A DNA stretch of 20,000 nt from Kondoa subrosea (Eukaryota). The translations under genes were made by a program, and so were the position numbers. Every line of letters starts with the position of its first letter. The first letter of the stretch is position 1. The stretch spans positions 1,925,055-1,945,054 of the forward strand of contig BCIN01000003.1 of assembly GCA_039545335.1 (NCBI GenBank), given 5' to 3'. This document shows positions 647 through 20,000 of this stretch, one piece after another. The notes beneath the pieces were generated by a model. It saw nothing but the letters and a program-made list of their open reading frames with translations. It was not told the origin of the DNA and did not search any database.

Positions 647-802
647 TCAGTACTCTTCGCTGTTCATCTCACGAACTGAAGCTACTTAAACCCGGAATTC
701 AATGTTTTGATTGGGAAAGCATTTAGAAGCCGCTTCTGCGTCTCGGGTTGGCGCAGAAGCCTTACGCATCTCTTGTTGATGCTCCTCTTTCACTGAAGGA
801 CC
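647..802. promoter_or_regulatory. Compact divergent (probably bidirectional) promoter region between TyrRS and RdRP
   Basis: Only 156 bp separate the two head-to-head ATGs (646 on -, 803 on +). Confidence 0.55.
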
Positions 803-3800
803 ATGAGCGACCGCGGATACCTGGTCTGTACATCTAGTCATGCGAATATAGTCGTATCAACTCCTCCTCCTCGGCTGGATAGAGCCTTTGCAAGAATCCC
901 TTTCTTCTTACAACATGAATTGAGTCGGTACATTTCTGCTGGTGCTTTACAATGGGAAGACTTCAATGCTCCAGACCTGAAACCTTGGGCGGAAAAGCCA
1001 GACCTCAGGACTACATCCGCAAGAGCTGAGCCTGTTGAGTGCCGGAGCTTCTCTGAGTTTCATGGCATGTTGGGCGAGAAGATGCGAAGCAAACCTAGTC
1101 AAACAAGTTTTGTTGTCAATTCACCTCAGTACAATGTAACGCAAGAAGCGGAGACTCTGCATGTTCAGTCATTGAAGAAACAAGATTCTGGTATCGATCT
1201 CACTACAGCCGTACCGCAAACAACTCGAGTTCCCATCTTCCGTGGTGCATTGTCTCTGATTGAAAACCAAATCCATTTCAAGATAGCAGCACCAACATGG
1301 GACATTTCTACTCGTTTCTACCGGCAATACACTTACAAGCGTTGGCTACGAGTGTGTGTGCAAACGACACTAGAAAGAAGAGCTCAAGATTTGGATTCAG
1401 CTGTTCAAAAAGCGCTGAAAGAATTTCTTCGGCGACCTTTGGTTATTGCCGGTCTACATTATCGAGCTGTCTACCATAAAGATGGCTCTCTGTTCTTCTT
1501 TCTCGAAAAAGGACCAGCTTTCCCTCAAATTACGGATTTCGCTTATCGGCATATCAAATTTGAGCTCAATCCGGATATGACTGTAGCGAAATTCATTGCT
1601 CGGTTTAGCTTGTAAGTAAAGTATCTCATTGGTGTGGCCATTACTCAGATCTTTGCAGAGGATTTTCCAAGACCAAGGCAACAGTCGAATTCCCTTCTAC
1701 CGCTTTGCGCCTCGTTCCCGATGTAACATCAACTTCTCTACTTGTTGGTCGGACAATGATGAAAAACATTGCTGCTTCGCTCATGCTGCACTATGTGCCA
1801 AGTTTGTTCTTCTTCAATCGTAGTTCACGGTTAGCAGCTGATCTCCTTGGACAGGTGCGGTTAAGATGAAGACAAAAGATATCGACGTCGTCTATGTACT
1901 AGACCAATTGCAGAACCTCAACGAATCACAAGATTGGATTACTATCACTTCCGATATGTTTACGCTCAATGGCACCATAGAAGAGTTCAGACCTACTTTC
2001 TCAGCTACTCTTATTGGTGCTGAAGGAGAGGAACCACATACGACGACTTGTCAAATGGCTTTTCATTCAGTTCGCGATCGAGCAAAACTAAGAATTCAAT
2101 CCGGTCAATGGCCTGGAACAGGAGAAGTTATGACAGATGGATGTGCTGCAATAAGTCGGAGCGCTATGATGGAATGTGCCAAGTTCCTTGGATTGGCGGA
2201 AGTACCTAGTGCGGTTCAAGCTAGAATAGGTGGATCTAAAGGAATGTGGTATCTTGATCATGCTTTGGATTCGCGTGTAAGCCCAAATACGTCTATAAGC
2301 GTACGTCATCGATATTTATTATTAGAGTTACAGCATGACCCGCCCTGGATCGAGATCAGAGAAAGCCAGCACAAGTACAACGAAAGACCAGACTTCAAGT
2401 ATGTCCTCGAAGTTGTTCGGTGGTCTTCGCCTGGCACTACAGCGCAAATTGGTAAACAGATGCTCCAAGTGAGTGTGTATCATCTCTTCTTCTAATCAGC
2501 ATTTGACCTCCCGCTCAGGTTCTAGCTGATCGAGGTGTACCAAACAAAATCTTCACCGATCTACTTTGTTCAGCTTTGACCGAGAAGTTGGAAGATCTGC
2601 TCGCTTGGGACGATCCCTCTACGTTGAGGAGAGCAATCGAAATAGCAGGAAGAGTCAAATTTACCCGTGCCAAACTTCCTGCCCCTGCACCAGACGCGGA
2701 CGTTCTGCTTCAATCTCGATCGTCACACCGCAACGAAGAAGACGTGGATCTCCGGCGAGAAACAAGTACAGCCAGCTCGGACGATATCTTAGGTATCGGG
2801 GACGAAACTTTCGATCCGTATAGTGGTCTGCCTCGAACATCAGCGGAGCAAGTGATCGAGATGATTGATAATGGCTTTCAACCTGAACAGAATCTTTATA
2901 TGCAAGCTTGATGATTCCTGTTGTGAACATTGCTGACAGCCAACAATAGGGCAACCAAAATCAAGTCGCTTGTGGAACAAGTTATCGAGTCTACAACTCG
3001 CTTCAATGTCCCTATTGCAAGATCAACTACACTCTATGTTATCGTAGACCCGCTTGGCTGTCTTGCGCCAGATGAAATCTATGTTCAGCTTAGCGACGGC
3101 ATACTCGATCCGGACACGATGCAGAAAATCAGGGTCATCACGGGCGATGTATTGGTCACTCGATCGCCTTGCGTTCTGCCAACCGACATACGTAAAGTCA
3201 AGGCGGTCGATAAGCCAGATCTTCGCGTTTATCATGATGTCGTGGTCTTCCCTCGAAATGGTCATCGGTCCCTGTGTGGACTTCTCTCGGGAGGTGATTA
3301 TGATGGAGATACTATCTGCGTAATTTTCGAGCCGACATTGGTCCAGCCTTTTGTCGATGCGGCGGAAAGTTTCGCTGACGCGCCGTTCAATCCATCAGAC
3401 TTTTTCACCAGCGATGCAAGAAGTGTTGCTCAATTCTTACTGCCTCTGAAAGGGAACGATAATCGAGCGATCACTGACTGTCTGCTTGGTCCACTCTTTG
3501 CGCCTAGATTCTATGGTCTTATGTCTGAACTGCATACAAGCTTGATCTACACCAAGGGTCTATGCGATCCTCTGACCATCGAGCTTGCTCACCTGTTCGC
3601 GCTTTCTTTGGATGCAGCCAAAGCTGGCAAATGCTTCTTACCAGCTAAAGCTGCTCACTATCGCCGTACGTACACGCCTCCCACCCGGTAATAGCTCTGA
3701 TATCTTGTTTGTACGAACAGATCAATATAGTATCATGTCGAAGCCAGCATGGGTTCAGAAGGTGGATCAAATCGAATCTGCCCTTGATGGCTGGACAACG

Positions 3801-4832
3801 ATGAAGCGAGATGAGACGAAAGCTGCAAGACGACCTCGAACTATGGTAGAGCACGTCATGGGTAATTGCTTCGCCATGATACCTGTTATACCAAGCTGAC
3901 AGCTTGCTTAGATGCCTTGGCCAAAATTGGAGAGGAAGTCAAAGTTCAGCACAAAGCTGAAATACTCGAACGCGTAGAGCAGTGCGTGCGATCTTGTGAT
4001 GCAGACCTAGCGTAAGGCCTCTTGTCTAGTGATATGCATGCCAGCTGATTAGACACCTCGTTAGACGACCCTGGCTCGAATACCAACGTAAAGCAGAATC
4101 GGAACCTTTGCTCAAACAAGATCTCAGACTGATCGAATTATTAGTCAAGGTTAGAGCTTGTCCCGCTAGTCGAGCATTCACTGACCTCTAGCTGCTCAGG
4201 ATCTCGCGAAAAAATATGATATACTGGCATCTTCAGCAGCTAGACGTAACACACCTTCTACAGCGCTAGGGACATTGCAGATTTCAAATAGCTACGCTGC
4301 TTATCAAGCATCGTTGCAGAGTCTTGCAGCAGCCTTCATTACTGGCATCCCAATAGATCAGCTTGAAAGCCAGTACTTCAAAGGCTGTCCGGATGCGGCC
4401 AAGCGCTTGAGAGCAGTAAAGGTTTGTCAGCACCTCAAAATCTTCGTAAGCTGCTCAATGCCAAAGTGCAGGCTTCCGCTGTCTATGTCATCATGGTAAG
4501 CAAATCATTCTTGATATTCCTTCAGTCGCTTAGCTATCTTATCGCCTGTGCAGTTCAAAGAGATGCAGAAGTTTCCCTCATTCGGGAGCCGACTTAATTT
4601 ACCTTATGTCTTGGCTTTTCGAGACTTTCTGGCCTTGAAAGCGGACGCAGTGACAGCTGCTAGCTTAAGTAGGCAGATCGGGACAGCTAGCGAAGGAGTA
4701 AGTTCGCATGTCAATCGCCTGCTATGGACGCATTTGACACCGTTGCAGGCATCAGCTCAAAGAGTAGTACGACCTGTTTGGCTGGATTTAGAAACAAGGA
4801 AGACGAAAGTGAAAAGAAGAAGAGTTGCTTAG
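803..4832 (+). CDS. Cellular RNA-dependent RNA polymerase (RNAi RdRP, QDE-1/Rdp1 family)
   Basis: Motifs RFSLGFSKT, MTDGCAAIS, PSAVQARIGGSKGMW, VTRSPCVLPTDIRKVKAV, DVVVFPRNG and catalytic LSGGDYDGD (DYDGD at 3296-3310). Introns 1612-1658, 1802-1854, 2277-2333, 2469-2518, 2902-2949 (GC-AG), 3688-3730, 3862-3911, 4012-4064, 4150-4199, 4422-4471 and 4496-4553 give one open frame ending RKTKVKRRRVA*. Confidence 0.93.
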
Positions 4833-4949
4833 CCCCCGTGCGAAGCGTAAAATAGGAATTCTGGTTCAGTTCGGTTCAGTCCATAAAATGTTTTATATTA
4901 GGTTCATAGCACTTGTACACTTTACAACATCATAGAATTGCACACATTA

Positions 4950-7270
4950 TTATTGGCGTAGTACTTGACCTACTATCTCAGGCAGTTTATAAGGGGAATC
5001 TGAGGGTATCCGCCTCAACAAGTTGGCAGCTGTTGTTCCAAGTTCTTCGCGCGAATTTTCGTGTCCTCGCACCTCCCATTCTGATGGACTACCTTTGCCA
5101 GAGTATTCGAACTGGAAGACCATGTCAGCGGGAGTCTAAATGAGTATGCCAAGAGCTGACCATCACGAGACCTGCAGACCAAGGTCAGCAACTGTGATGT
5201 GGTGACCGAATGATAGCTCACCATTGCCTACTATATTACCCTGCCTATGAAACACCGACACACCTCTAGATACGGCATCAAGTTCCCAATATTGCGTTCG
5301 CAAGGCATAGGTAGCGATCTGCCGGGCAGTCAGCAATTGATCGTCGGTCTTGTTGGATTCCATCCATTGCTTAGTTAGCGACAGATAACAGTCGGCGAGC
5401 TAATGCAGAGAACATGAGCATATCCTAGAGTGCGAATAAGTGCATCGCCCACCTGCTGTCTTTGCTCTGCTAGTTCTGCTCTTCGTGCTGTATCTTTCTG
5501 TCTGTAATTCTCGCCAGGGACGACTTCTTTGTAATCCCAACTCCATTCTGTCTGGCCGCCCTGTCAATACTCAGTTACGTGAGCTCTGATAGAGCACAGT
5601 GTAGACTATGGCACCGACGAGTTCCGAAATCAAATGTTGCTTCGGTATATGAATAAAAAGATCCTCCGTGTTCTTGGTCTACGATATACTCAGCGACGGA
5701 ATTGAAAGAGCATCAATTGACTTACAAATTGTACTTTCGCTCGAACAACTGGATCAAGCATAGGTGCGACTACCTGTAAATCTTCACCTGAGAAAGTACC
5801 GGAATGACAGCGAAACGTACGAACCTTCCATATTCCTTGGAAAACCCATGGCGCCGAATGAACAAGTACGCAATTGAGTGACTCAGGATCTACAGACGAA
5901 AATCAGCTTGCATCTACAGAGTACATCAGCAGAGCTCACAGTATGCTTCAAGACACTTGACCAGGAATCTAGACAGTCAAGATCAATACAGGCAGAAGCT
6001 ATATTATAGTTTATTTACCCTCTGAAAAGGTGCAGATCAGAAATCAGCACAAGATATCAAGGAACGAAATCAGACATACAAACAGTTGTAATCTGTGAAC
6101 CTCCAAAAAGCGATAAGTCACCTAGGCGACACCTCGCTAGATCTGGACCCACCCATGTTCTTCAATCCGAAACCTACTTGAGATCTCAACAAGGTTCCTG
6201 TAAAGTACAGACTTAAGCTGACCTTCCATATTGCTATAGAATTACATTGAGCATGACATAAAGCTGAGCATACATTACTCACAAGCATATCGTGACTTTA
6301 TCAGCTGGCGGTGTGAGCAAACATCGAACGCATTCCATTGTAATGATGATAAGCTTTTCCAAAGACTGTAGGATACACTCTTTATTTAGCAGATATCCAG
6401 CAACAAGAATCACCACCCACAGCTTGCGGTTGATCTGACTGTTTATGCAAAGCCACGTTGATATACACTATCGGTCTACCAAAATGGTCAAAGCCTTGAG
6501 TATATGACTGTATCTCTATAAACACTTGCAACACATGAACATACGCACGAGTACTCACTTTGCCTATCCTAAGCTGATGAATGAAACCTTGAACGTCTTG
6601 CATGCCTTCTTCACCCAATTCCACAATCTTATCCACCTCGCTCTCTATCCTCCATTTCAAACAAGCAGCCAACATAGCCGAAGCAGCATTGGGAACCCAT
6701 TTCCTAGCTCTCAAAAATCTAAGCATAATAGAATCCGGATCATCCATAGCGATTAATTTCCAATAAGCATTCATGAATTTTTTAGATCCGTAAAGTTGTA
6801 AAGCTTCTCTAGCAGCTGCAATTTCTCTTTCTGCTCGAACTCTTTCTTTTTCTCCATCATCTTTTGGTGTAGATTTGGTCAAGTCTTCTCCTCCATTAGG
6901 TTTGCTGGATGATCGACCGCCTGAACCTTCTACTGGTGCAGAATAGACTAGTTCGAGAAAGTTCTGCAAGCAGCCTCTGGGTACTGAGCTGATGTACAGC
7001 TAAAGCAACAAGAGACGCTTGCCTTCCAGAACAACTTGAGCTGCCTATCTTGCTCAGCTATACCAAGCAGTATCAGCATGGTCTCATCTCGAGAGAGAAC
7101 ATGTGACTAACCTGTAAGCTTGCCAACGACTCCATCCGCTGGAAATGCCAGAAAGTCAATAATGATGCGCGATAGTAGGCGTGAGAGAGAGCGGACTCGG
7201 TAAAGGGTTCGCGCTATTCCATGAGTCAGTAAAGACTCTCTACGAGTGTCCAGAAACGTTACCTGATCAT
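4950..7270 (-). CDS. CRAL-TRIO/Sec14-family lipid transfer protein (Csr1/Sfh2-like), about 16 exons
   Basis: Spliced N-terminus MISANPLPTDGVVGKLTAEQDRQLKLFWK; DDPDSIMLRFLRARKW; GFDHFGRPIVYINVALH; FNMEGFGLKNMDYNCLGFLVKCLEAYYPESL; HSAPWVFQGIWK; PMLDPVVRAKVQF; LRTQYWELD. The last exon and the stop at 4950-4952 are less certain. Confidence 0.88.
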
Positions 7271-7402: not shown

Positions 7403-8250
7403 CTATCGCATTGATTTCGGCGGAGGAAACTTCAATACTTCAGACCTGCCTGCTTCCCCGTATTGCAGCAGCCCAACATAAGGCATGATATTGTACTGCA
7501 AGCTAAATGTAGCAGTGACGTTTCTGTGGGTTCGAACGACGCTTTTAGCTCTTGGAATGAGCATGAAGAATCAAACCACCCACTTGAAAGTATCTGTGAT
7601 TTCCTTGAAAGCATACTTGTTCTTCGCTTCACTTAAAGATATCTTAGCGTCCTTCTTTCTTCTTACTATCCTATCCCAAATAACTACTTGATTAACAGGC
7701 TGTAAGAGCATCGGCTCCATCAACCAGAACACACTGGTTTACAATGGAGGATGAGCTTACATAGGTACCTGTTTGATATTCTGCTACGAAATACACAAAG
7801 ACCTGCTTTGTGTTCCAATGAAATAAAGGTTGAAGATCTGTTCGATACCGATTTCATATAGAGCTTGATTATATAGCTAAAATGAAAGGCAGGACGAACC
7901 TGCAGAGATATCAAACCTAGCAAAAGCATACTCTCTTTCTTTCCTATCTCTATCATAGTAGTTATTCGACCTCCCAAGCATTCTAAGAACAGAACATACA
8001 TAAACATGAGATTTCTACAGAACGCTAGAGGAGGAGTAAGTGAGCTCACACATTCAAGGTATTGACTTTGAGAGAAGCAGGTTGAAGAGAATGAGGTTGC
8101 AAGTAGGAAACGAGTGAGATTGCAGCCAGGACAGTGAACAGAACAGAAGAAGCGAATGTGCTGTCATAGATCACGCCTTAGGGACGTGTAAAGATAAGCA
8201 AATTGGAGCTCATACGAGACTGCATTCAGCCTGGATAGCATGGTATGCAT
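7403..8250 (-). CDS. SPC3: Signal peptidase complex subunit Spc3/SPC22
   Basis: Missed by the ORF track because of introns. Spliced translation: MHTMLSRLNAVSTFASSVLFTVLAAISLVS...EYAFARFDISADLQPLFHWNTKQVFVYFVAEY...NQVVIWDRIVRRKKDAKI...KNKYAF...FSLQYNIMPYVGLL...PPPKSMR*. It includes the family signature LFxWNTKQVFVY. Confidence 0.92.
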
Positions 8251-9707: not shown

Positions 9708-10677
9708 ATGAGCGCACCGGAGTGGAAACTTGCTTCAGTGATTGATGAATCTGGAGCTCATATTGGCGACATTCAGTCTCCCTTGGGATCCATTCTCCAA
9801 TGCGTTTTTGCATGGCTCACCAACCCAACCTCTCCAGATGCGGCCAAGATGCAGTCACTTTACATTCCAGCTCATTGCAATTACGAACAAGATATGATCG
9901 TCTACAGCTCTAGTCATCCCGCTTATAGAGCTGCTCAACTCCAGAACATTAGACACGATTTCGACTCGCTAGCCAAGATTGTCTCAGTATGTCATACTAT
10001 TGAAAAAGCAGATGATCTCTTTGGCTTCATCAAAACAAAGCGAAACTCATCTGAAGCACCGGAATTATGTTTTACTACTTCAGCTCTTCAGATGTTGTCT
10101 CTTTCAAGGAGTGATGAGGAACGTCAGCACATTTACATGGCAATCTTCCTTGTCTGCTTCCGCGAATTAGAGCACCTTTTGGGTCGCTGGGTCAGTTTTA
10201 CTGGACTTTCAAGTCACATTACGAGACTAACAACTGTCCTGTGTCAAACAGAAACGGGATTTTGTTCAAAGGTACCCCAATCAGGTCTTCAGTGACAACA
10301 GGTCGGACATCAGGGCATGGAGAGGAAGGCGGAGGGCTGATTGAGAACAAGCTAATTGATGGAGGACTCCAATCGTGGAATATCAGTGGAGATAGTAAGA
10401 CAGGCTTTCTCTGCATTCTGCTCAAAATCACCTCATACTAGAGCCAATAGAGCACAGTCCTGATCCCATTCTTGGGTATCGCTACTATCAGTTTCAAGCT
10501 ACAGTGCCTAATTCCTCTCAGCCTGATTATCACGTCCTCTCTGATTCCGACGTGCACTTGGTGTTGGAATACCTGCTCGACCCCGCAAGCGGTTACTGCC
10601 CGGTGCCATTCTTCCACCCTCCTGCCAAGATCAGAGTGCACAGCATTGCTGTTAAGTGGCATGATGGCCGCCGCTAG
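9708..10677 (+). CDS. Hypothetical protein with degenerate zincin-like motifs; possibly a pseudogene
   Basis: Three coding-like segments: MSAPEWK...CFRELEHLLGRW, then GTPIR...GEEGGGLIENKLIDGG, then PIEHSPDP...WHDGRR* (TAG 10675-10677). The second intron (GTAAGA...CTAG) joins in frame. The best splice sites of the first intron give a frame mismatch. Confidence 0.45.
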
Positions 10678-10836
10678 TGTATCAGTTTTTGCTTATCCTT
10701 TCACGCTGCAAGTTTCGGCTTCGACAACGAATGATACTTTGCTTGCCCTCAATCGACGCGGAATACAGCATACATCATCACTTCAGCATTCCTCACCGAT
10801 ATCTCACTCCGAGACCGACTCACCCACACTTTCAAA

Positions 10837-15845: not shown

Positions 15846-17069
15846 ATGGGCAAGAAGGTCAAGCTAGCCTCAGGCGCGTTTCTGGCCAGACAGGGCGTAT
15901 AAACGATGTATTGAGATTTTGCATAAACAGCATTACAGAAGCAGCAGGAGAAGCAGAAGAAAGCGGATTACAATGCAGAGCTACAGAACAGGCCATCAAA
16001 GAAGCCGAAGCTCGATAAAGGCAAAGCGAAAGCTGTCGAAGCAGAGCCTGTCAAGAAATGGATTCCGTTTGATGAAAATCAAAGGATCTTGCTCGTGGGC
16101 GAAGGTGACGACTGTCGCTAGTAGTTGGGAAGTGGATGCTCATCATCATGCTGTAGCCAACTTTTCCTTTACTCTTTCCCTTCTGACCCATCATATTCCT
16201 TATGCTGCACCAAACATCATTGCTACCTCTTATGATTCTTTCGAGGTTTGCAAAACCAAGTACGCTGATGCTGAGGAGAACGTCACTACGGCTAGTCCCT
16301 TCTGCTTCTCAATGTAATCATCTCTGATAGTCAAATTAGCTCCGAGACATGGGCGCTACAGTTCTCTTCGATGTCGATTGTGGAACACTAGAAACTGTCA
16401 AAGCACTCAAAGGCAAAACTTTCGATCGAATAGTCTTCAATTATCCTCATGTTGGCTTGGGAGAGAAAGATGAAGCTCGAAATATACGATTCAACCAAAC
16501 TCTCTGCTTGAGGTTCTTCAGAAGTGCTGCGTCGTTTTTGGCTCTTGGAGATATGCCTAGGAGTGTGACTAGTGGGAAGAAGAGGAAACGAATAGAAGGA
16601 CTGGATTCGGATGAGGAAGAGATGATTTCTCAAGAAGATCGTGGATCGATATTAATTACGTTGAGAGATGCTAAGCCCTACTCTGAATGGAATGTACCGT
16701 ACGTATACCCGCTCCAGGCGATACCTTCAATTCGCTCATGCTCTTGAATCTAGCTCACTGGCAAAGAAAGGCTCATTATACGTTAAAACTCTCTTACCTC
16801 AACTCAAAGCAGATCCAGATACCCAGCCAAGCTACGTCGTGGTCCGATCAGGCGCTTTTGACGCCTCACTTTATCCTGGATACAGTCATAGAAGAACGAT
16901 AGGCTACAAAGAAGGGACGTCTTTCGATGACAGCGTGGATACCAAGTACTCTGCAAAGGAGAGGAAGAAGGAAGTGAAGACGCAGGAAGCTGGGAGTTCA
17001 AAGATGTGGCAGTTGTGTTTGCTTGAGCAGCCTGTTGTAGTGAAGACGGGTTGGGCGTCGAGGGAGTGA
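15846..17069 (+). CDS. BMT5: 25S rRNA (uridine-N3)-methyltransferase, DUF2431/Bmt5 family
   Basis: Spliced MGKKVKLASALQKQQ...RILLVGEANFSFTLSL, IIATSYDS, VLFDVDC, FDRIVFNYPHVG, RNIRFNQTL, GSILITL...PYSEWNV, FDASLYPGYSHRRTIG. Four introns, two with probable GC donors (15874-15930, 16291-16339). Confidence 0.88.
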
Positions 17070-17309: not shown

Positions 17310-18613
17310 ATGAACTTGCTCGATCTGCCTTCGGAGCTGCTTCAAATGATCGCACATGAAGCCTACTGGGCATTTGATGATGAATTGTCGGGCGAACCTT
17401 TGTCGTACGATTGGCTGCGCAAACCTATCCATGGTCAACTGCGGCATTCTGATAGCACTCTGGTATTCTGGACTTCTGCTGACTGCTTGGCTCTCTCATG
17501 TCAGAAGCTTTGGCATCTGACGCGTTCTGAGCAACTCTATGGCTTCGAATTGTTGCATGAAACGAACAAGGAGGTGCAAGAGCAAATCGATCATTACGGG
17601 TCTGATCTGTCTTATGTGAGGATTCTTGAATGCTATATTGCATATCGTAGGCGCTTCGGAATTTGACATGATGCTCCACGCTCATTCCAGACTCTCTCTA
17701 GCCAAACGCAAGCTAGCGCTAGAGCCCGCGTCACGTCAAGATGAGAACGGTGCCATGGGGACAACAGCCGATCCATATGAAGAGAACGAGCGTGCTGATT
17801 CGATTTGTCGATTTATATCGCAGTGCAAGCTTTTGCGAAAGCTGGTCATCGATTTCACACTGCATTCTTCATTCAAGTCTACTCTGTCTGGTCTTTCCAC
17901 TCTTACGCAATTGCATATCTCACGAAGTCGACACCCTCTGAACGAAGAAGTTATAGCAAGCATTATTGACAAGCTCCCTTGCTTGCTCGTGATTGAATTG
18001 AAGGACATAGTCGAAGGAAACCATGAGATTGGTGACATGAGGTTGAGGAATGCGTTGGCGTCACGTAATCGACTGTTCGAGCTGACTTTGAAAAACTGTT
18101 CTGCTTGTAATGACGGCTTTATGTGAGCTGGTTTGGCATCATTAGCAGTTCTGAAACTCATTTGCGTCCAGGGACATTTGATGGCTGGGCAATCTTGTAC
18201 ACCTCTGCATCGGGTGTAAACTGAATCTCAACTCTGCAAACGCGATTATTACAAGTCTCGGCTCCAACTTGCAGACTTTGCAGATCTCTACCATTCTGGA
18301 CGACGGCACAGATGAGAGCGTGCCATTCAATCTGCCGAAGCTACAACAGCTTCAACTTTCGACTTTGACACCCGTTCATCTCCTGCGAAGGTTCGCCTCG
18401 CCTGTTTTGCAGGAACTTGCACTTGTCATGTGCGAGAACTTTACCATGCAAGACTTTAGCAAGATCATCCTGGAGAAATCTTTCCCTCGTCTGATTCTTC
18501 TGGACCTTCGAGCTCAGCCGTTTGATGGCCTGAGAGGATTTCAAGAGCAATGTAAAGAAGTTGGGCTGACTTTGGAAGTGTTGATGCCGTGGCCTGAAAC
18601 GGACGAGGAGTAG
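17310..18613 (+). pseudogene. F-box/LRR-like gene with an in-frame premature TGA (pseudogene, null allele or sequencing error)
   Basis: F-box start MNLLDLPSELLQMIA and LRR-like segments (LLRKLVI, TLTQLHIS, KLQQLQLS, VLQELAL). Introns 17647-17701 and 18123-18171. Exon 3 reads M-D-I-TGA(18179-18181)-W-L-G-N-L-V-H-L and then stays open to TAG at 18613. Confidence 0.62.
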
Positions 18614-19772
18614 CTTGAGTGGGAGGAAGAACGAAGAATTGTATGCATGCATCAAGGTTTGTCTTCTACATCACGTTTCCCGAGGTCACAAGCTCACATC
18701 ACATCATGATACAGTTGAGATGGACTGTGCAGGATATGATCAGCTAGTTACCAAACATCGCTCTCGGCTCTACCGACAGCACGTCTTATAACCTAAGCTG
18801 TTTTCTCTTACTGTCCATTTACTGAGCCTTAGTTCACTGTTTTGGAGCTCTTCTATCCAATTCTTTCAACCATGTCTGCACGGTCTGTTTGGAGTTTGTC
18901 TCTTTCGTTTCGATGTTGCAATTGTTGTGTCTTGCCTTTTTTCTTGTCTCGTCGTCTTCTTGATTACAAGATTTTCGATGAGCTTCGCTGCTCGCTAAGC
19001 AAGCAACTACGGTACAAGAAACCATTCCCGCCCCGCGCTAGTTCCTGCGCCTTGTGGTGCACTTATGCCTAGACATTTGCTTTCTTGTCATTGCTGAATT
19101 TTTGGAAGGCGTTTTGCTGTCTTTTTGCCCATATTCTTCCTGTCATCGTTACTGCATTGTAGTGCCAGGGATTATGCAATTCTGTCAGCATTGTTTCCAT
19201 ACTTACATCAGTTCTGTCAGCTTGTCGAGTTTGGAGAATCCCATCCATGATCTGCATTCATCATCATGCCAACTCGATTCCTTTCGTACTACACGGCTTG
19301 CAGTATATCTTATGAATTTGTATTGTTTGCCTGTGATCTGTATTCCATCTAACGTTGCTGTTTGGTGGACCTTTTCAGTTCCTTGTGGGATATTTTTTAC
19401 GGTCTGTTTATCTTATTGACTCGAAATATATGCAGTCTGTGAAGATGTGTTTCTCCGTCTCGTTTTCAGTGCAGAGATCTATATATCCTTTGCTAGCTGA
19501 ATATAAGGTGTATAGGTATATCGCAGCCAGTGAACGAGTGCGAAACATCGCTCGAGCCAGGGTCATGTATACGCTGCCTTGTGTTAAAAATCTTTCTTCC
19601 TTGTTTCCGTGTCCTTGCACCGCGATCAGAGACAGGTATGGATAGACCGTCTAGTAGAAAATGCCTCGTCGAGAGCGAAAGGACGCAGAAGAGAGCATCC
19701 AAAAGTTTTTTTTCATCGCAAATGACGGTTAGATGTTGCTAAAAAGAAGAGGGCTCAGCCCGCCAACCAAGC

Positions 19773-19777
19773 AAAAA
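19773..19777 (-). terminator. RNA polymerase III oligo-T terminator of the tRNA gene
   Basis: TTTTT on the minus strand 12 nt downstream of the discriminator base; a second T5 lies at 19741-19745. Confidence 0.65.
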
Positions 19778-19825
19778 GACAGGCCTAGTAGATCTACCGC
19801 GGACTCGAACCGCGAGTCTCCTGAT

Positions 19826-19834
19826 TGTACGGTA
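19826..19834 (-). other. Canonical tRNA intron (position 37/38), 9 nt, TACCGTACA
   Basis: Starts one base 3' of the anticodon and contains CGTA, complementary to the TACG of the anticodon loop, as is typical of SEN-spliced introns. Confidence 0.85.
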
Positions 19835-19845
19835 TCGTAGTCAGA

Positions 19846-19896
19846 CTGGATGAGGAGATGAGCATGTGAAATACAGAGGGTGATGAAGCGGCTTAC
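19846..19896 (-). other. Spliceosomal-type intron (51 nt) inside the tRNA between positions 26 and 27
   Basis: GCG|GTAAGC donor, ATGCTCAT branch-like motif, pyrimidine-rich tract, CCAG| acceptor. Precise removal restores the cloverleaf. Confidence 0.82.
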
Positions 19897-20000
19897 CGCC
19901 TTAACCATTGGGCCAGTAGACCAATATGATCAAATGAAGCGGGATGTATAATCTCTATTCCATGTCTTTTGGTTTTGTAGAGCAATGCCATATAGGGCAC

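Follow-up and report, generated by a model that had tools for sequence, protein, structure and literature searches.

The window, by which we mean the whole stretch of 20,000 nt of DNA that was analysed, contains genes for an RNA-dependent RNA polymerase (RdRP), a Sec14-like protein, a 2-hydroxyacid dehydrogenase, a protein kinase, a BMT5-like methyltransferase and F-box-like proteins, all of which have short introns, together with a tRNA-Arg(ACG) gene on the minus strand that is interrupted by two inserts (Table 1). The Pfam RdRP match extends over at least three exons. Hits to the RdRP are 29-41% identical, and the best that bear a name, obtained with the RdRP exon, come from the basidiomycetes Calocera, Naematelia, Kwoniella and Vanrija at 38-41% identity; searches with the Sec14-like protein and the kinase brought up unnamed proteins only, and none of the three proteins gave a close named relative. 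Judging from these similarities the window is fungal and its lineage basidiomycete-like, and this lineage appears to be poorly sampled in protein databases. On the plus strand no convincing reading frame is present beyond approximately position 18610, and a plus-strand gene overlapping the tRNA locus was rejected. A weak match to the C/D-box snoRNA model snoTBR17 (18.8 bits against a gathering threshold of 40, E = 1.6), which adjoins a predicted intron, is probably noise.

The codons CGT, CGC and CGA account for 61 of the 144 arginine codons (42%) in the Pfam-supported frames of the window. In standard fungal decoding these three codons need a tRNA-Arg with inosine derived from ACG, and the organism would therefore be expected to need a tRNA-Arg(ACG) species.

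Table 1. Positions of the interrupted tRNA-Arg(ACG) gene, its parts and other features mentioned in the text, numbered along the window.
Feature	Position	Strand	Length or detail
Whole interrupted tRNA-Arg(ACG) gene	19790..19922	-	133 nt; 73 nt once both inserts are cut out
Exon 1, tRNA positions 1-26 (acceptor 5' strand, D arm with A box, G26)	19897..19922	-	26 nt
Insert between tRNA positions 26 and 27, with the anatomy of a spliceosomal intron	19846..19896	-	51 nt, GTAAGC...CAG
Branch motif CTCAT of the insert	19862-19858	-	A at 19859
tRNA positions 27-37 (anticodon stem 5' strand and loop, anticodon ACG)	19835..19845	-	11 nt
Canonical tRNA intron at 37/38	19826..19834	-	9 nt
tRNA positions 38-73 (anticodon stem 3' strand, variable loop, T arm with B box, acceptor 3' strand, discriminator T)	19790..19825	-	36 nt
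T5 run, likely RNA polymerase III terminator	19773..19777	-	13-17 nt past the last tRNA base
Second T5 run	19741-19745		
TATACAT, possible upstream promoter element (putative role)	19944..19950	-	-28 to -22 relative to tRNA position 1
Hairpin over the 5' splice site	19886-19901	-	AGGCGG (end of exon 1 and first intron base) paired with insert positions 6-11 (CCGCUU), UAAG loop
9-mer CCGCTTCAT, copy in the flank	19934-19942	-	12 nt upstream of the tRNA
9-mer CCGCTTCAT, copy in the insert	19882-19890	-	insert positions 7-15
Repeat of about 384 nt, approximately three copies in the source sample	19906..20000, continuing past the window end		5' flank and tRNA positions 1-17; from contig depths and the branch node 19906-19935
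RNA-dependent RNA polymerase gene	797-5100	+	
Local intron with GCTCAT	16699-16753	+	
Local intron with GCTCAT	17647-17701	+	
Local intron with GCTCAT	7542-7583	-	
Local intron with GCTCAT	5400-5452	-	
Weak match to snoTBR17	10647-10703	+	
Predicted intron adjoining the snoTBR17 match	10395-10450		

The original prediction divided the tRNA gene into five parts, and cutting by coordinates confirms both this anatomy and the minus-strand sequence that was given for it. Once the two inserts are deleted in silico, ARAGORN recognises a tRNA-Arg(acg) of 73 bases with a score of 118.5, in which the acceptor stem has seven of seven pairs (one of them G.U), the D stem three pairs, the anticodon stem five of five (one U.G) and the T stem five of five, and in which the conserved bases U8, A14, G18 and G19, U33, T54 to C56 and A58 are kept. 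The cloverleaf, the A and B boxes and the T-run terminator are complete, but only after both inserts have been removed in silico. No decay is seen at any of the 73 exon positions or in the splice signals, in agreement with the earlier impression that this is not a decayed gene. It had also been proposed that cutting at GT and AG yields a properly paired cloverleaf; the product is indeed right and the GT-AG register is the natural one, yet the cloverleaf does not force it, because a G precedes both junctions and a cut placed one base to the left gives the same product.

A run of five T is known in general to act as a terminator for RNA polymerase III, and one such run lies shortly downstream of the gene, with a second T5 run also present nearby. 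The A and B boxes of the interrupted gene are, by counting, approximately 92 nt apart, and TFIIIC tolerates a spacing of this size. Fission-yeast tRNA genes require a TATA element, and the TATACAT that precedes the gene may play a comparable part.

The shorter of the two inserts was described originally as a canonical tRNA intron, and its structure bears this out: it lies at 37/38, in a constrained fold its CGU pairs with the anticodon within a helix of 4 bp, and the 3' cut falls in a 3-nt bulge beside the anticodon stem. Its 9 nt are within the range of 6-133 nt given for eukaryotic tRNA introns in the available part of a review (PMC4090602), where an intron of the canonical type is also reported for 132 of the 143 tRNA genes of the basidiomycete yeast Cryptococcus neoformans.

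For the longer insert, the mRNA introns of the window provide a local standard. A segment from GT to AG was accepted as such an intron if it joined two open frames with a minimum of 35-40 codons and if read-through across it was blocked, one acceptor being kept per donor, and 16 were obtained; the junctions of those in the RdRP gene agree with tblastn comparisons to homologues. The 16 introns are 42-56 nt long, have a GTNNG donor and a CTNAY motif 11-23 nt before the acceptor, and end in YAG in 15 cases and in AAG in the remaining one. The insert, at 51 nt, has a donor that scores 6.9 bits against 4.7-8.0 bits for the local introns (leave-one-out), the donor matrix being somewhat circular because the 16 introns were picked partly by G at +5, by YAG and by the branch motif. 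Its acceptor scores 3.2 bits against 0.4-6.6, the pyrimidine share of its tail is 0.76 against 0.41-0.82, and the A of its branch motif lies 13 nt from the intron end against 11-23 nt. Furthermore the final CAG is the first AG downstream of CTCAT, with no AG in between. In its donor, its branch motif and pyrimidine-rich tail, its acceptor and its length the insert thus has the features of a U2-type GT-AG intron. The claim that the insert shares its donor, type of branch motif, YAG acceptor and length class with the mRNA introns of the window is thus upheld. The extended branch motif of the insert, GCTCAT, recurs in four of these local introns, where it precedes the acceptor by 15-17 nt.

How often such a combination arises can be estimated from a joint pattern of a GT start, G at +5, a YAG end and a CTNAY motif whose A lies 10-23 nt before that end. 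The pattern occurs in 4 of the 39,900 51-mers of the window, the insert itself included (about 1e-4), and in 24 of 400,000 51-mers generated by a Markov chain (6e-5); among the 164 51-mers of the window that run from GT to AG, 5% reach the donor score of the insert and 2.4% reach both its donor and its acceptor scores. The likeness of the insert to a spliceosomal intron is real and goes beyond chance. The longest T run in the insert is of three T, so that a stop of RNA polymerase III within it is not expected, although this is a weak argument as 13 of the 16 local introns likewise have no T4. The exon flanks, GCG before the insert and TCT after it, are unlike the classical AG/G insertion site.

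A different route out of a tRNA precursor is offered by the tRNA endonuclease, which would be suited by a bulge-helix-bulge. As a template for this structure we took a 4-bp helix and a pair of 3-nt bulges, one on the 3' side of either strand, with cleavage following the second base of each bulge, and the insert does not fit it in either register: at the 26/27 and 77/78 junctions of the precursor one of the four central pairs is present, in the register one base to the left two of the four are, and the outer and inner helices are also absent. The known tRNA-endonuclease route therefore does not fit the 51-nt insert. The whole precursor folds at -36.0 kcal/mol (z = -0.93), 35 of 200 shuffles folding at least as well, and when the stems of the cloverleaf are enforced the insert gives no stable arm. 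A reading of the insert as a structured extra arm was rejected for want of a stable fold. In the minimum-energy fold the 5' splice site is enclosed in a hairpin of 6 bp that forms in competition with the D stem.

It had been anticipated that standard tRNA finders would miss or mis-call a gene of this kind, and this is true of both that were used. The Rfam models report no tRNA at their gathering thresholds, at E <= 5 in the window or at E <= 10 in a stretch of 241 nt round the gene. ARAGORN makes no call on the native sequence in its default mode, and with introns allowed it offers only a poor tRNA-Trp(cca) that scores 105.4; that reading was rejected, as it needs a 40-nt intron at 32/33, an A.G mismatch in a stem and an oversized extra arm, and falls short of the 118.5 of the tRNA-Arg. 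The same spurious tRNA-Trp is returned when the 9 nt alone are cut. Deletion of positions 19846-19896 had been expected to give a high-scoring Arg-ACG in tRNAscan-SE. In ARAGORN, deletion of the 51 nt alone leads to a call of Val(tac) at 111.1, because ARAGORN misplaces the 9-nt intron, whereas the expected tRNA appears at its full score once the 9-nt intron is also taken out.

Whether the gene has relatives elsewhere in the genome was approached through the contigs of two DNA runs (X1 and X2) of one sample, possibly the source of the window, which were compared with positions 19740-19972 at a likeness of at least 80%. One long contig (26.7 kb in X1 and 11.5 kb in X2, at depths of 142.9 and 52.8) covers 19740-19935 without a difference, and the interrupted gene is accordingly present in both runs just as in the window, at single-copy depth, with no joint and no differing letters. 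A short contig (384 nt in X1 and 392 nt in X2, at depths of 435.4 and 174.6) runs upstream from 19906, and a contig of 2137 nt (depths of 275.5 and 113.3) shares only 19906-19935 and then differs. No other contig matches the insert or the final 56 nt of the gene (its 3' part) at this likeness, in a comparison that did report a 30-nt match elsewhere, and holes in contigs prove nothing. Contigs break at shared 31-mers, which suggests that no second locus has a 31-mer in common with 19740-19905.

The contigs are therefore weak evidence that the probable source sample holds neither an intron-free twin with the same 3' exon nor a near-identical source intron. If so, the insertion is probably not recent, though the exons and splice signals are intact. 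An uninterrupted Arg-ACG copy with the same exons, which the original prediction had suggested should be looked for, was not found among the contigs of this sample, a weak result in that contigs cannot show absence. The window itself holds no further copy of the insert, the exons or the flank. One metagenome scan for Arg-ACG anchors from the D arm and the anticodon arm, set 21-81 nt apart, revealed no relative; the one locus that it returned (L001) is GC-rich and lacks a tRNA, and was rejected as a chance match.

Two other places in the genome carry the 5' flank and the first 17 bases of the tRNA without the rest of the gene, diverging after tRNA position 17 into a continuation of which the 30 letters seen are absent from the window. 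The resulting three-copy repeat may be a partial duplication of the locus, or it may be a mobile element that captured the locus, and it hints at rearrangement near the gene. The 9-mer CCGCTTCAT is present on the minus strand both in the flank and in the insert, a match that is equalled by 52 of 2000 shuffles of the insert and that may be due to chance.

Taken at face value this is a live tRNA-Arg(ACG) gene with two introns of different kinds that depends on the spliceosome, a reading to which we give just short of an even chance. Transcription by RNA polymerase III, directed by the internal A and B boxes, would end at the T5 run; the 51-nt GT-AG intron at 26/27 would be cut out by the spliceosome, with GTAAGC as donor, the A of CTCAT as branch point and the next AG downstream of it as acceptor; and the tRNA endonuclease and a ligase would take out the 9-nt intron at 37/38. 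The spliceosome would probably act before the tRNA endonuclease, because the cloverleaf by which that enzyme takes its measure cannot form with 51 nt between the D and anticodon arms. The intron itself could have originated by reverse splicing into a tRNA. Of the original interpretation, the anatomy, the likeness to an intron, the lack of a bulge-helix-bulge, the canonical nature of the 9-nt intron, the intact exons, the failure of the finders and the lack of a case in print have all stood, whilst the transcription, the splicing, the order of the steps and the origin of the insert by reverse splicing are what we infer from them. As judged from anatomy, a mechanism that combines the spliceosome with the tRNA endonuclease would seem to be the best single explanation. 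What counts against a working gene is that its 5' splice site lies inside the 6-bp hairpin, that it neighbours a repeat and that its exon flanks are unlike AG/G.

The alternative that has most in its favour is that this is a dead or dying copy, in which a genuine or derived spliceosomal intron has landed in one tRNA-Arg gene and is not productively spliced, other genes supplying the tRNA-Arg(ACG). Such a copy could have arisen, for example, by reverse splicing into the tRNA followed by reverse transcription and recombination, with too little time since then for visible decay. We regard this as quite possible, if on balance doubtful. The gene stands at the edge of the approximately three-copy repeat in gene-free sequence, and splicing is understood to be coupled to RNA polymerase II, which argues against efficient splicing of a polymerase III transcript; according to the title of a 1987 paper, polymerase III transcripts reportedly were not substrates for splicing in the system tested. 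If, as is usual, there are several identical Arg-ACG genes and these have another sequence, a lone variant such as this one would look more like a dead copy. Furthermore this is the default position of the field for inserts outside 37/38 in eukaryotic tRNA genes, those in the D or T arm being generally taken for pseudogenes, as the available part of one review has it (PMC4090602). Against it stand the absence of a single sign of decay in the 73 exon positions or the splice signals, the intact terminator and promoter boxes, and, more weakly, the fact that neither a near-identical source intron nor an intron-free twin is seen among the contigs of the sample. For this tRNA-Arg(ACG) gene the pseudogene default is weakened.

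The remaining alternatives keep some part of the live gene and change how the insert is read. [quoted passage not shown] We consider it very unlikely that the 51 nt are removed without the spliceosome, by the tRNA endonuclease or another pair of nuclease and ligase at a non-canonical site, the GT-AG appearance being coincidental or inherited. Nucleomorphs and Cyanidioschyzon merolae do excise non-canonical tRNA introns, some from the D arm, according to the available part of PMC4090602, yet here neither register offers a bulge-helix-bulge, the insert has no stable structure (the z of -0.93 for the precursor being equalled or bettered by those 35 of 200 shuffles) and a full set of spliceosomal signals would have to have come together by chance, at about 1e-4. 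Equally slight is the prospect that the insert is no intron at all but some other insertion that resembles one by chance, having been picked from very many windows. Many windows were indeed screened and the cloverleaf permits two cut registers; against this the joint features are found in just 6e-5 to 1e-4 of 51-mers, and among the 164 GT..AG 51-mers the donor score is reached by 5% and both scores by 2.4%.

If the preferred reading is true, that of a live gene that depends on the spliceosome, the kind of element is a known one, a spliceosomal intron in a non-coding polymerase III gene, and the class of host is new. We would suggest, with confidence appreciably short of even, that dependence on the spliceosome is here met with for the first time in a tRNA gene and that, if the contig evidence holds, this is maybe the organism's only gene for this tRNA-Arg(ACG) sequence. 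It would then be the first tRNA to need two splicing systems, its precursor passing through both before folding and charging. Were it also the only gene, the decoding of CGU, CGC and CGA, 42% of the arginine codons counted in the window, would hang on splicing of the mRNA type. A working gene would imply that the spliceosome can act on a very short and highly structured polymerase III transcript with no link to the spliceosome core, it would tie translation capacity to splicing capacity, and it would let the idea that any abundant RNA can gain introns by reverse splicing be tested in nature. The failure of the Rfam models to report the gene, and of ARAGORN to find it or to call it correctly, would in that case expose a blind spot in tRNA annotation; if the reading is true, standard tRNA finders would overlook such genes, and intron-rich fungi could contain more of them. 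Even if the gene is dead it would still be a rare record of how an intron enters a non-coding gene.

Introns in eukaryotes are taught as separate classes, each with its own machinery. Three such classes, spliceosomal, tRNA and XBP1, are named in the available part of PMC12530127. The literature searched in full text, from which subscription journals are largely absent, yielded no tRNA gene reported to carry a spliceosomal intron, nor is a tRNA case mentioned in the available portions of reviews of tRNA introns and disrupted tRNAs (PMC4090602, PMC3978253) and of U6 (PMC5855946). The statement in the original prediction that there is no established case in a tRNA is in keeping with this, absence from the literature searched being no proof.

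There are a number of known systems with which the tRNA-Arg gene can be compared. [quoted passage not shown] 2016; in PMC5855946, available part). As far as they are described there, the U6 genes of S. pombe and other fungi resemble the tRNA-Arg gene in having a short intron with canonical 5', branch and 3' sites within a small structured polymerase III RNA, and in that the host RNA does not work until the spliceosome has removed the intron, which for tRNA-Arg is what we propose; reverse splicing is likewise the proposed origin. The two differ in that U6 is part of the catalytic centre of the spliceosome, a location that accounts for the entry of an intron by reverse splicing, whereas a tRNA has no such contact. 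They also differ in that the S. pombe intron has been proven to be spliced whereas the tRNA-Arg insert is known from its sequence, and in that the tRNA-Arg gene has a second intron, of the tRNA type.

Other non-coding hosts of spliceosomal introns include the U1, U2 and U5 snRNA genes of the red yeast Rhodotorula hasegawae (Takahashi et al. 1993, 1996) and the rRNA genes of ascomycetes (Bhattacharya et al. 2000), both as cited in the available part of PMC5855946. [quoted passage not shown]

Tracing the comparison from the tRNA side, the genes of Cyanidioschyzon merolae, of the nucleomorphs of cryptophytes and chlorarachniophytes and of archaea provide cases, in the available portions of PMC4090602 and PMC3978253, of introns outside 37/38, sometimes in or beside the D arm and in addition to a canonical intron, and standard tRNA finders miss such genes too. 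According to the same portions, those introns are cut at a bulge-helix-bulge by the tRNA endonuclease or are very short (3-24 nt), whereas the insert in the tRNA-Arg gene has no bulge-helix-bulge and does have spliceosomal signals. Finally, tRNA pseudogenes whose D or T arm contains an insertion, as the available part of PMC4090602 describes them, have in common with the tRNA-Arg gene that a single gene copy carries an insert outside the canonical site. They differ from it in that the exons, promoter boxes and terminator of the tRNA-Arg gene are undecayed, and its insert is a complete intron rather than an arbitrary sequence.
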